Below, one piece after another: positions 1-32,061 of a DNA stretch of 43,043 nt. Position 1 is the stretch's first letter, and each line of letters opens with the position of its first letter. Position numbers and translations under genes: made by a program. Below the pieces are notes generated by a model that worked only from the letters and a program-made list of their open reading frames with translations, was not told where the DNA came from and searched no databases. Origin of the DNA: a bacterium (GTDB taxonomy: Bacteria > Patescibacteriota > Minisyncoccia > Phycocordibacterales > UBA5272); NCBI GenBank assembly GCA_031386485.1, contig JANNCJ010000048.1:1-43043 (forward strand). The letters are read 5' to 3'.

Positions 1-187
1 ATACCAATGAGTGCCATTGATCTTCTTTTATTATTTAAAACTTTGTTTATGTCCATAATGTTAGTGAATATATACATTTTGTTATGTATATATTGTAACA
101 TGGGAGTTATTTACGGACAAGGTTAATGACCTGCAAATCAAATTGAGTCGCCAAACGGCGTCTGCTAATAAACCACACTGAAACCCT

Positions 188-451
188 TCAGAATCTGTTC
201 GCCCCTTCGTGTTCAGTCGGCAGCACAAGAGACACTCCACACTCACTTTGTATCTTGGATCTGAGGTATCCAGATTCTTCAAGAAGCTTGACCAATGCTT
301 GCTCATTCCTGGTGAGTAGATTCCGGTCTCTGAGAGCAAAGCATGTAGCTGCTTGAATGCAAATAGCCGCGTCATTTAGCCGCTGGTCGAATCCTGGGTC
401 CCAGTAGTTATTCCACGCTTTGACAAACTCATCAATCCTTTTTCCCATCAT
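188..451 (-). CDS. orphan small protein (87 aa) in GC-elevated island
   Basis: ATG-started ORF directly downstream of conserved leader copy A. No recognisable motifs. An alternative frame (82-375) overlaps it. Confidence 0.45.
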   Translation of the reverse strand: MMGKRIDEFVKAWNNYWDPGFDQRLNDAAICIQAATCFALRDRNLLTRNEQALVKLLEESGYLRSKIQSECGVSLVLPTEHEGANRF

Positions 452-465
452 GTACCCCTCAGGGT

Positions 466-522
466 TAGAAAAATGTTACCGGCGAATTTGCCACACTTTT
501 CTCACCAATAATCCTAGCATAA
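466..522 (-). promoter_or_regulatory. conserved 57-nt leader, copy A
   Basis: Ungapped match to 2344-2400 (46/57 identical by hand count). Lies 14 nt upstream of the ATG at 451. Confidence 0.6.
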
Positions 523-544
523 AATATATAAAATTGAAAGGGCT

Positions 545-1762
545 TTAGTCCAAAATAAAATCTGGGAGCTCTGTTGGAGTTTTGACACCCCAATCTTCAA
601 ATGACTTTTTAAAGCTTGCAAGTACAGCGGCTTTGAACTCTGTACTGTTTTTAGTAAAAGTGCTCATACCAGAGTCTGGTGGCCACATAATACCAATTTT
701 TACACCATCTAATTTTTTTATTAATTCTAACGATTCCCTTAATTGCCTTTTATTAACCAGACCTTTGGCAACAGCATTATAGCCGATAAGCTTGGCAATT
801 CTTGATCCTATCATCTGTTTCGTAGATGGCTTTATATTTTCTGTGAGCTCATAAGGCAGCTGAGGGAGAATTATCACATGAGTCGGTTTTACTTTGTCAA
901 TTATCTCTTGTATAGGACAAGCTGCGACAGCGCCGTCATAATACTGCTCACCATTAATTATACCAGCCTTACCAGTCATCTTAGGGCCGAGTGCCATAGA
1001 CGCTTTGACAGCTTCATCCAAGGAGGGGACTTCTGCTTGATTACGCGCATCAAGTAGCACGACTTCTGGATCCTTTACTCCGTCAGTCGGCTTTGTCACA
1101 ACATAGTACAGCTCAGTCTTAGAATTCCTAATTTTATCTTCATCTATTATGGGGCCTCTACTTGAACCTTTCAGCGCCCCCACAAGCCAGTCCAGATTAA
1201 CTACGCTTCCCCCTTTTACAACTCTTTTCGCATTAATAAAATCGTCGTCGCTCCCAGACTCTGCGAGGATTTTGCTTGCCTCTACTGTCTCTCGCTTGCC
1301 TGCGAGATATCCAGTAGCTACGACTGCTCCGCCTGATGCGCCCACTACCGCATCTACTTTATCTGCAGTTATTCCGATTGCATTGAGTGCCATAATCTGC
1401 CCTGCTGAATAGGCGCACTTCATACCACCACCGAGGATCACAATCAGAGTTTTAATATTCTGATTATCCGGATTAGAAGCTTTGTCTCTGAAGCCAGCTA
1501 TTGCTTCTTGAAGATTTACATTCCATGCGGGCGCCTCCTTGCTTATTCTCCTTTCAAAATCAGCGTCATCTCTTATGGCCTCTTCATGCATTATATGCTG
1601 CGGAGTCTTTCTTCTGAATCTTAGTAGATTCTTTAGTTGTAATGCATGCTCATTCCATTTTCTAATATGGAATTCTCTCTGTCTTTTTAGTGCTTCTTGT
1701 TCTGGGGTTAGAGGCGGGTTATTAGGCTCGGCATTACTTGGTGCTGCAGACATTGATTGCAT
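545..1762 (-). CDS. patatin-like phospholipase
   Basis: GGGMKCAY glycine-rich motif, GASGG (GxSxG) nucleophile elbow and YYDGA catalytic Asp motif, plus a ~110-aa N-terminal extension. Confidence 0.85.
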   Translation of the reverse strand: MQSMSAAPSNAEPNNPPLTPEQEALKRQREFHIRKWNEHALQLKNLLRFRRKTPQHIMHEEAIRDDADFERRISKEAPAWNVNLQEAIAGFRDKASNPDNQNIKTLIVILGGGMKCAYSAGQIMALNAIGITADKVDAVVGASGGAVVATGYLAGKRETVEASKILAESGSDDDFINAKRVVKGGSVVNLDWLVGALKGSSRGPIIDEDKIRNSKTELYYVVTKPTDGVKDPEVVLLDARNQAEVPSLDEAVKASMALGPKMTGKAGIINGEQYYDGAVAACPIQEIIDKVKPTHVIILPQLPYELTENIKPSTKQMIGSRIAKLIGYNAVAKGLVNKRQLRESLELIKKLDGVKIGIMWPPDSGMSTFTKNSTEFKAAVLASFKKSFEDWGVKTPTELPDFILD

Positions 1763-1805
1763 ATTTTTAATAGATTAATTATAAACCTATATGAATTATA
1801 TATCA

Positions 1806-1859
1806 CCCAAAACAAAATGCAAGCAGGTATTAAGAAGCTCATAACTTCTACCTGCTTGC
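1806..1859 (-). terminator. intrinsic terminator after ORF 1890-2336
   Basis: Perfect 11-bp stem gcaagcaggta/tacctgcttgc (1819-1829, 1849-1859) with an inner gaag/cttc extension. On the minus strand it is followed by ATTTTGTTTT. Confidence 0.7.
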
Positions 1860-1889
1860 GATATTCCATATTCCACCTGCAGCGACTAA

Positions 1890-2336
1890 TCAGTTAGGAA
1901 CTGGAAATCCGTAAATCGGATGAGGCGATGCTGAGACAAACATTGTATTGTGAATATTGTCCCAGATTACTCTCCACGGCTGAATTAGGGTCATCATCCT
2001 CTGATAAGCCTCACCCACTTCTCGCTCAATAAATCCAACAAGCAAATCCTGATCTCCATTAGAAAGTGTTAGGGTGATAGATGTTCCATATTCCGCGAGC
2101 ATCCGCTTAATATGATCGAGATCGAGCTTCTCAGGTCTTGATATGGTTCCTCTCTCTAACTCAGTCTGCAAACATTTTGCATTCAGAGCTATCAGCATGA
2201 TGCAGTTGATTCTGGATAAGGAGTTGAGAAAATCTGTTACGCGCTTGCTTTCAGGCACGAAATCAGGAAATTTGAATTGAATTTTTTGTCCTGTTGCACC
2301 AATAGCTGTAAGAGTTTGTGTCATGATTCTTTCCAT
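1890..2336 (-). CDS. orphan protein (148 aa) in GC-elevated island
   Basis: ORF preceded by leader copy B and followed by a strong terminator. No recognisable motifs. Confidence 0.5.
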   Translation of the reverse strand: MERIMTQTLTAIGATGQKIQFKFPDFVPESKRVTDFLNSLSRINCIMLIALNAKCLQTELERGTISRPEKLDLDHIKRMLAEYGTSITLTLSNGDQDLLVGFIEREVGEAYQRMMTLIQPWRVIWDNIHNTMFVSASPHPIYGFPVPN

Positions 2337-2343
2337 TCATAAG

Positions 2344-2400
2344 TAGAAAAAGTGGTACGGCGACTTTGCCACACTTTTCTCACAAATAATACTAACACAA
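2344..2400 (-). promoter_or_regulatory. conserved 57-nt leader, copy B
   Basis: Ungapped match to 466-522. Lies 7 nt upstream of the ATG at 2336. Confidence 0.6.
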
Positions 2401-6746: not shown

Positions 6747-6772
6747 TGACAAATCTCTCTCTCTGCTAATAT
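6746..6772 (+). promoter_or_regulatory. sigma70-like promoter for ORF 6840-7238
   Basis: TTGACA (6746-6751) and TGcTAATAT extended -10 (6767-6772), with a ~15-nt spacer. Confidence 0.45.
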
Positions 6773-6783
6773 GCACAATGTGG

Positions 6784-6799
6784 ATTGACGGTCGTCAAT
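6784..6799. promoter_or_regulatory. 7-bp inverted repeat attgacg-gt-cgtcaat (operator or 5' UTR hairpin)
   Basis: Perfect arms located between the predicted -10 and the ATG at 6840. Confidence 0.4.
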
Positions 6800-6839
6800 T
6801 CATAACAAGCAATCTCATATTGAATCTTAAGGACCAATC

Positions 6840-23193: not shown

Positions 23194-23739
23194 TTACTTC
23201 TCACTTTTATTTATTATATCTTTAAGCTTCTCTTTGGCTCTTCTTATCCTTGTACCCACTGTGCTTATTGGGATTTTGAGTATTTCGGAGATTTCTTCAT
23301 ATGATAAATCTTCAAAGTAATTTAAGATTAATATTTCTTTATACTTAGCTCCAAGCTTGTCTAAGTTAAGCTCCATTTCTTTTTTGAGTTCTTGAGTCAA
23401 AGTGTGGGAGTCACTTTTTTCTTTAGAAAATAACTGTGGCGATATAATATCGAGCTCAAAAAAGCTTATACCAATTTTTTTATGCTTTTTAAGATAATTT
23501 ACGCTTTCATTGTGTGCGATGCGATATATCCATGAGTTAAAACTCTGATCCTTGTCAAAGCTATTTAAGTTTTGATACGCCTTGATAAACACATTTTGTA
23601 AAATGTCTTCTACGTCTTCTTTGGTAGCGATAAATCGATTTATATATCTACTTAATTTATTATTATAAATCTGCACAATGTCTCCATATGAATCTTTTTG
23701 ACCGTCAAGTACTTTACGAACTAGCTCTATTTCTAGCAT
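23194..23739 (-). CDS. ECF-type sigma-70 family RNA polymerase sigma factor
   Basis: Region 2 FNSWIYRIAHNESVNYLKK and region 4 LSYEEISEILKIPISTVGTRIRRAKEKL. Confidence 0.85.
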   Translation of the reverse strand: MLEIELVRKVLDGQKDSYGDIVQIYNNKLSRYINRFIATKEDVEDILQNVFIKAYQNLNSFDKDQSFNSWIYRIAHNESVNYLKKHKKIGISFFELDIISPQLFSKEKSDSHTLTQELKKEMELNLDKLGAKYKEILILNYFEDLSYEEISEILKIPISTVGTRIRRAKEKLKDIINKSEK

Positions 23740-23800
23740 AAATATTATTACAAAATTATTTTTATTTTATTTCAAATTTTGATATTAAAATATACACATT

Positions 23801-32042: not shown

Positions 32043-32061
32043 ACACTTTCTCACCAGATAA
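32043..32061 (-). promoter_or_regulatory. partial third copy of the conserved leader core
   Basis: acactttctcaccagataa vs acacttttctcaccaataa at 493-512 (one indel, one mismatch). Confidence 0.4.

Follow-up and report, generated by a model that had tools for sequence, protein, structure and literature searches.

A putative promoter and leader cassette repeated ahead of three unrelated accessory genes in a Patescibacteria genome

Similar 5' non-coding sequences that precede non-homologous genes within one genome have been described as putative mobile promoters (PMPs; Matus-Garcia, Nijveen & van Passel, NAR 2012, via PMC3575422). As defined in PMC3575422, a PMP lies between positions -150 and -50 and shows an identity of 80% or more over 50 nt or more. 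The promoter early stem-loop (PeSL) cassettes of T4-type phages are present in dozens of copies, in plastic regions (Arbiol et al. 2010; PMC2839356; PMC4122927). On the RNA side, 5'-terminal stem-loops are known to protect transcripts from 5'-end-dependent decay, as in leaders of the ompA, papA and aprE type (PMC3997798). Here we describe a non-coding block of ~66 nt that stands in three copies (a, b, and c) ahead of three unrelated open reading frames (ORFs) in the genome of a bacterium of the Phycocordibacterales (Patescibacteriota). Copies a and b are located in the window, by which we mean the whole stretch of DNA analysed (contig JANNCJ010000048.1 of assembly GCA_031386485.1, positions 1 to 43,043). 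Both copies, and the signals and genes mapped around them between positions 1 and 2405, lie on the minus strand of the window. We consider it probable that the block is a reused promoter/5' untranslated region (5' UTR) expression cassette of three independent single-gene accessory transcription units. The high identity between the copies would then result from copying within the lineage and not from deep conservation.

The repeat was analysed in the genome assembly to which the window belongs (742 kb on 105 contigs, 36.6% GC, 91% complete). Judged from its SecY protein, the organism belongs to the Patescibacteria and is of the Paceibacterota/Nomurabacteria type. Window positions 466-522 and 2344-2400, compared on the minus strand, align without gaps and are identical at 46 of 57 positions, so the match reported in the initial annotation is borne out. 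The window contains the 26-nt core of this alignment, GTGAGAAAAGTGTGGCAAAKTCGCCG, at exactly two places (480-505 and 2358-2383), whereas none of 100 dinucleotide shuffles contained it. A search of the whole assembly revealed one further full copy of the block (copy c) on a different contig (C6:682-748, plus strand). This copy has a single mismatch in the core and precedes a third ORF that is unrelated to the other two. When a profile was built from the three copies, nhmmer returned each of them with an E value of 1e-18 to 1e-19, and the next match in the genome had an E value of only 0.86. Therefore, the block family has exactly three members in this genome. The values for the two window copies were E 1.2e-19 and 91 bits with a covariance model for copy a, and E 2.8e-18 and 85 bits for copy b. 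A partial copy that had been placed at 32043-32061 is at chance level: nhmmer gave no match there even at E<=100, and the 13-mer of this site, within one edit, occurs eight times in the genome, with five of the occurrences outside the real copies. Nothing like the promoter or the remaining hairpin was found in the flanks of 32043-32061.

The conserved block is longer than first described: the whole module of promoter and hairpin extends over window positions 462-527 in copy a and 2340-2405 in copy b. The alignment of ~66 nt reads TTTATG-y-TAG-k-ATTATT-k-GTGAGAAAAGTGTGGCAA-wk-TCGCCG-[GTAACA / TACCAC]-TTTTTCT. Over 59 nt, copies a and c are 92% identical, copies b and c 80%, and copies a and b 78%. 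Identity is thus 78-92% within the block, compared with 35-50% in the adjoining sequence, and changes abruptly on both sides. The similarity between the copies does not enter any coding sequence. All three copies have the same orientation relative to the downstream ORF. Copies b and c also match from the end of the block to the ATG, at identical spacing (16 matches over 26 positions, p about 8.5e-4). As judged from the sequences, the homologous module is therefore ~85 nt long and reaches from the -10 box through the start codon.

The left part of the block reads TGyTAGkAT, which corresponds to an extended -10 promoter. In copy a, this element is TGCTAGGAT at 511-519, and in copy b it is TGTTAGTAT at 2389-2397. 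The hexamer TTGCGA, located 17 nt upstream of the -10 element of copy b, is a possible -35 element. In addition to the sequences themselves, the assignment of both -10 elements relies on promoter statistics for 316 upstream regions of this genome, where TGnTAnnnT is strongly enriched upstream of genes and is the dominant upstream signal. TGnTAnnnT abuts the start in 77 of the 316 regions, in 41 exactly 6 nt separate its hexamer from the ATG, and a Shine-Dalgarno (SD)-like motif is present in only 35. Because of this 6-nt spacing between hexamer and ATG and the small number of SD-like motifs, the genome appears to be largely leaderless, with TGnTAnnnT as its main promoter and with transcription starting ~7 nt after the -10 hexamer. 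Applied to the block, the 6-nt rule of the leaderless genes places the predicted transcription start at G/T/G of GTGAG, which corresponds to window positions 503-505 in copy a and 2381-2383 in copy b, and to C6:704-706 in copy c. In one relative, an identical TGCTAGGAT was found 6 nt before a leaderless ATG. The layout TGnTATAAT-N6-ATG was also observed at the cmk genes of congeners.

The segment that follows the predicted start folds into a hairpin of 13-16 bp, the stem of which starts 0-3 nt from the predicted 5' end. In this fold, the pairing of AGAAAAGUGU and ACAUUUUUCU encloses a top stem of GGC/GCC, which is capped by a hexaloop. The pairing of an A-run with a U-run around a short GGC/GCC stem had been noticed earlier, and it is the minimum free energy (MFE) fold in every copy. 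The hairpins of the three copies have folding energies of -12.8 to -13.8 kcal/mol (z -2.8 to -3.3), and only 0-4 of 200 shuffled sequences were as stable. The hairpin of copy a (AGAAAAGUGUGGC / GCC..ACAUUUUUCU) spans positions 467-502 (MFE -12.8 kcal/mol, z -3.28, 0/200 shuffles as stable), and that of copy b spans positions 2343-2383 (MFE -13.4 kcal/mol, z -2.78). In the 3' arm of copy b, GTAACA is replaced by TACCAC, which still pairs, with the register shifted by one base. Copy b was also the only one listed as terminator-like in a consensus terminator scan. The stem beside the U-run consists of 3-4 weak pairs and GGC/GCC, and the U-run itself is paired with the A-run. SD sequences follow ~10 nt 3' of the hairpin and are in turn followed by an ATG: GAGGGG in copy a (455-460; with tandem ATGs at 451 and 448, 3 and 6 nt further on), GGAAAG in copy b (2329-2334; 4 nt before the ATG at 2324), and GGAG in copy c. 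Rfam gave no match at the block, either at the gathering threshold or at E<=10, and there is no sign of a riboswitch. Structured +1 regions are common in this genome and were also seen, for example, at window positions ~6770-6839, C103:1702, and C79:3809.

The differences between the copies are distributed unevenly. Of 56 block columns, 12 vary, and these are the n of TGn, the least constrained position of the -10 element, the discriminator, two loop bases, and positions of the bulge or 3' arm. Variation affects 3 of 31 columns that are critical for the -10 element or the stem versus 9 of the 25 other columns (Fisher p=0.023, post hoc). This pattern weakly suggests constraint on the promoter as well as on the pairing, and is more in keeping with a strand that folds than with a rigid dimeric operator.

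In our preferred interpretation, the housekeeping (sigma-70-type) extended -10 element TGyTAGkAT would drive transcription from the predicted start at GTGAG. The hairpin would take up the first ~40 nt of the transcript, with 0-3 nt ahead of its stem, and the ribosome would find the SD sequence and the start codon after another ~10 nt. In this way, the cassette would equip recently acquired genes of elevated GC content with a promoter of the host type, a leader, and a ribosome-binding site. The hairpin most likely shields the 5' end of the mRNA from RNase J, a 5'-to-3' exonuclease, and, together with the U-run, may also damp read-through from upstream. We infer protection of the 5' end as the most likely role of the hairpin, as it is the most economical one. 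Two RNase J paralogues are present in the genome, and RNase Y was not found there. Candidate phyla radiation (CPR) bacteria generally retain RNase J (PMC12641178). The initial annotation had suggested a shared operator or a cis-regulatory RNA. A shared cis-acting element ahead of unrelated genes is indeed supported, but a large part of it is a promoter of the housekeeping type.

The three downstream genes are short and rare. Copy a precedes an orphan ORF at 188-451, with a GC content of 0.475, which encodes 87 amino acid residues (86 from the second ATG at 448) and has its own frame as the best one in a codon model. Copy b precedes a member of a rare family, ORF144 (1890-2324; 144 residues), and copy c an ORF of 65 residues. 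The block had been described as lying ahead of ORFs 188-451 and 1890-2336. The first of these is retained, but the second more likely starts at the ATG at 2324, because GGAAAG is situated 4 nt upstream of this codon, which also aligns without gaps with the start codon on C6. The start at 2324 is the one called in public gene sets. Pairwise BLASTP comparison of the three ORFs gave no significant similarity, in agreement with the proposal that the downstream proteins are unrelated to each other. Of the initial observation, the two-copy match, the pairing, and the unrelated proteins thus stand. The partial third copy does not, and the start of the second ORF is probably another one.

With the codon model trained on this genome, each of the three ORFs scored best in its own frame. 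Their GC contents are 0.40-0.475, compared to a gene mean of 0.373 +/- 0.042. None of them has a Pfam match or a homologue in the 95 other genomes of the family, and in a set of 5.8 billion proteins they matched only themselves and strain variants, including one variant of ORF87 (the ORF at 188-451) with 99% identity. A HMMER scan of 1.8 billion representatives identified four distant homologues of ORF144 (25-38% identity, E 3e-14 to 4e-7). All four are metagenomic and share EVGExY...PWRxxWxN...PHPIYGxPV, in which the C-terminal motif is conserved. Therefore, ORF144 is a real but rare gene. No homologue of ORF144 was found in 400 genomes of the order, and no related loci were found in the genome or viral collections searched. 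PHROG and PADLOC searches gave marginal matches only, and ORF144 showed weak matches to phrog_5519 (E 0.005) and DUF6173 (E 0.07). Single-sequence AlphaFold models were too poor to use, with predicted local distance difference test (pLDDT) scores of 41 for ORF144 and 50 for ORF87.

The order of elements on the minus strand is block b, ORF144, a terminator, a patatin gene, block a, ORF87, and the end of an element resembling an insertion sequence (IS). The patatin-like phospholipase gene between the two block copies (545-1762; Pfam PF01734, E 4e-13) has no block, and is preceded by a TTGCAT promoter of its own. The strong terminator after ORF144 (1808-1859), a hairpin of -23.4 kcal/mol followed by a U-run, overlaps this promoter. 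A 16-mer that comprises the -35 element TTGCAT and a T-rich spacer (CTTGCATTTTGTTTTG) is identical at 1808-1823 (minus strand) and C6:1065-1080. These two sites belong to the promoter of the patatin gene and the presumed promoter of the 16S rRNA gene, respectively, and represent a second small case of shared promoter sequence. The patatin gene is absent from 12 congeners, and the divergent neighbour of cmk in congeners is pheS or the gene for ribosomal protein L25 (L039, L040, L041, L043). Therefore, window positions 1-2400 are an accessory insertion that is specific to this species.

The insertion is bordered by the IS-like repeat end (1-126, minus strand), which is present in at least five copies. 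It is 100% identical over 125-141 nt at the ends of contigs C4, C61, C71, and C104, where the outer flanks differ, and the body of the element was not found in the genome bin. This end begins with TTAACCTTGTCCGTAAATAACTCCC and contains an ORF from position 101 (MDINKVLNNKRRSMALIGMNKEK...). Copies a and b share their contig with cmk (window position 2517), and copy c has a ParE-type toxin-antitoxin pair on one side and the 16S rRNA gene on the other. All three copies are thus on cellular contigs. Other repeats are abundant in this genome. A palindromic, GC-rich element of ~105 nt (AACCCCTTC...CTTCCCnnnGGGAAG...GAAGGGGTT) is present in ~50 copies, at C1:840-945, C104:227-338, C104:13511-13616, C27:1081-1162, and about 45 more sites. 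A second repeat family (CCCCTCTCCnnnGGAGAGGGG..GGGGTGAGGCC) has 18 copies of ~40 nt. This repeat load is unusually heavy for a genome of 0.74 Mb.

The block was also searched for outside this genome. A pattern search that allowed up to three mismatches did not find the core in 40 relatives. In 96 genomes of the family, the covariance model gave no more than 28 bits elsewhere, versus 85-93 bits for the real copies, and the best of these other matches were ordinary terminators or a leaderless gene start. Scans with degenerate 20-mers in genome, metagenome, and viral collections returned only chance matches, in Pirellula and in an Actinomycetota contig, and BLAST searches of phages and plasmids returned nothing meaningful. 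Two Logan contigs of the same population (L015 and L016), which is present in runs SRR20217181 and SRR20217212, show the same arrangement as the window. Alternative arrangements were sought by looking up the exact proteins, and only these two contigs were found.

Several of the observations weigh against a reused expression cassette as the explanation. The three near-identical copies come from one population, so that, on sequence grounds, selection is not cleanly separable from recent copying. The congeners are distant (their cmk genes are 49-65% identical), and therefore absence of the block from them says little about its age. A strain variant represented by contig L015 (SRR20217181) has an A-to-T change at window position 515, one of five single-nucleotide differences in 3150 nt. 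In copy a, this base is the key A at position -11 of TAGGAT. The 26-nt core is near-identical with its loop-proximal bases included, which exceeds the need of a simple stabiliser. When longer segments were folded, the SD sequence or the start region could become an alternative partner of the U-rich 3' arm, and removal of the 5' arm lowered the probability that the SD is unpaired from ~0.5 to 0.11-0.16 in copies b and c. Such an alternative pairing of the U-rich arm would fit a regulatory switch. Finally, the transcription start and the presence of the hairpin in the RNA are themselves predictions.

The uniform core and the alternative pairing lead to the strongest alternative, in which the block marks a regulon. 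The core GTGAGAAAAGTGTGGCAAAKTCGCCG, or its hairpin, would be bound by one regulator, either a repressor at the +1 DNA or an RNA-binding protein on the leader, and the three genes would be switched together. Identity at 24-26 core positions in all copies goes beyond what a hairpin requires, the core occupies +1 to +26, which is a classic repressor position, and masking of the SD or start region by the U-rich arm in alternative folds would suit such control. Hairpins or palindromes directly after promoters are also common in this genome, since 16 of 66 predicted leadered transcripts (24%) start with one at z<-2. However, no candidate regulator gene lies beside a copy of the block, and none of the three small proteins matched a DNA- or RNA-binding domain. 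The right arm is shifted by one base between copies, which RNA pairing tolerates and a dimeric DNA-binding protein tolerates less well, and the relatives offer no comparative support. We therefore regard a common regulator as unlikely, although it deserves to be kept in mind.

A reused expression cassette also has to be weighed against a role of the block as a recombination handle or small mobile element, which would move gene cassettes by homologous or site-specific exchange, comparable to PeSLs or att-type repeats. Copies a and b are direct repeats around a 1.9-kb segment with ORF144 and the patatin gene, which could loop out. Moreover, there is an adjacent IS end, small repeats abound in the genome, and PeSLs act in this way in T4-type phages. 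However, the block is not associated with an integrase or transposase, and as a whole it has neither terminal inverted repeats nor target-site duplications. It is present only three times, each time correctly placed and oriented for expression, and the other assemblies of the population (L015 and L016) keep the same arrangement. Such a role is doubtful on this evidence. We are just as hesitant about a more far-reaching proposal, namely a PeSL-like system of Patescibacteria for the capture, expression, and exchange of orphan and accessory genes, with the core as the site of a dedicated recombination or regulatory factor. A repeat of the repetitive extragenic palindrome (REP) or miniature inverted-repeat transposable element (MITE) type was rejected, as the inverted repeat does not span the block, which continues on just one side for another 25 conserved nt, and the three copies have unrelated flanks and one orientation. 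A reading as an integron attC site was considered and likewise rejected.

The initial annotation had further proposed a promoter for an alternative sigma factor, namely the extracytoplasmic function (ECF) sigma encoded at 23194-23739. In its wider form, which includes sigma-54, this promoter would lie inside the core and transcription would start just after TTTTTCT. The core does contain TGGCA and GC dinucleotides, copy b has the string TGAGAA-N17-CGTA, and the window encodes the ECF sigma together with a putative anti-sigma partner. ECF sigma genes are usually autoregulated, from promoters of the GGAAC...CGT type. Yet the upstream region of this sigma gene (23740-23800) has no similarity to the block, and the core lacks a GGAAC/CGT-type motif at conserved spacing. 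Sigma-54 promoters are composed of GG-N10-GC elements. The spacing from GG to GC is 9 in the core and 12 in sigma-54 promoters, and no Sigma54_DBD match was found in the 91%-complete genome. In addition, the would-be internal -10 element is the only variable part of the core, and the block already contains a good housekeeping extended -10 element at the right place. An alternative-sigma promoter is accordingly very improbable. Hardly any weight can be given to the idea that the block is just where a recent segmental duplication ends, or that it matches by chance, and has no function of its own: all copies come from one population and their common descent by copying is certain, but there are three copies and not two, the similarity stops sharply and outside coding sequence, all copies are placed alike relative to SD and ATG, and chance is excluded by the shuffles and the nhmmer E values.

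How CPR bacteria with tiny genomes acquire and express novel genes is poorly understood. At this locus and its counterpart on C6, three unrelated accessory genes are associated with one host-type promoter and a structured leader, in a genome that otherwise appears largely leaderless. If the module is portable, it could serve as a promoter/5' UTR part for Patescibacteria, which lack genetic tools, and would also mark recently acquired genes.

Among the described systems, the 5' stabilisers (ompA and papA of E. coli; aprE and ermC of B. subtilis; PMC3997798) resemble the block, as predicted, in having a hairpin near the 5' end that is followed by a ribosome-binding site, and RNase J is present here. 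These stabilisers are individual leaders with experimentally determined half-lives, whereas the 5' end of the block and its effect are predicted. PeSL cassettes share with the block a sigma-70-type promoter, a stem-loop, an SD sequence, and an ATG before unrelated ORFans, all of which are found in the block, and in one PeSL subclass the stem-loop follows the -10 box. PeSLs have G/C-rich stems that were shown to terminate transcription, and their recombination into mini-circles was demonstrated. In contrast, the block exists in three copies on a cellular chromosome, has an A/U-rich stem predicted to lie inside the transcript, shows no recombination product among the assemblies, and has no match in phage collections. 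PMPs, as they are presented in PMC3575422, share with the block closely similar upstream sequence before non-homologous genes and no recognisable link to an IS or MITE, and in both cases the identity may reflect selection or recent copying. The block differs from PMPs as defined there in its position, at about -85 to -20 including the -10 box and the 5' UTR, and in that, for two of its three pairs, the identity over 59 nt is no more than 78-80%. Reuse of promoters and leaders is a known and fairly ordinary phenomenon, of which the present case is a modest one, and the block fits the generic class of PMPs described in that source, though not strictly its positional definition.

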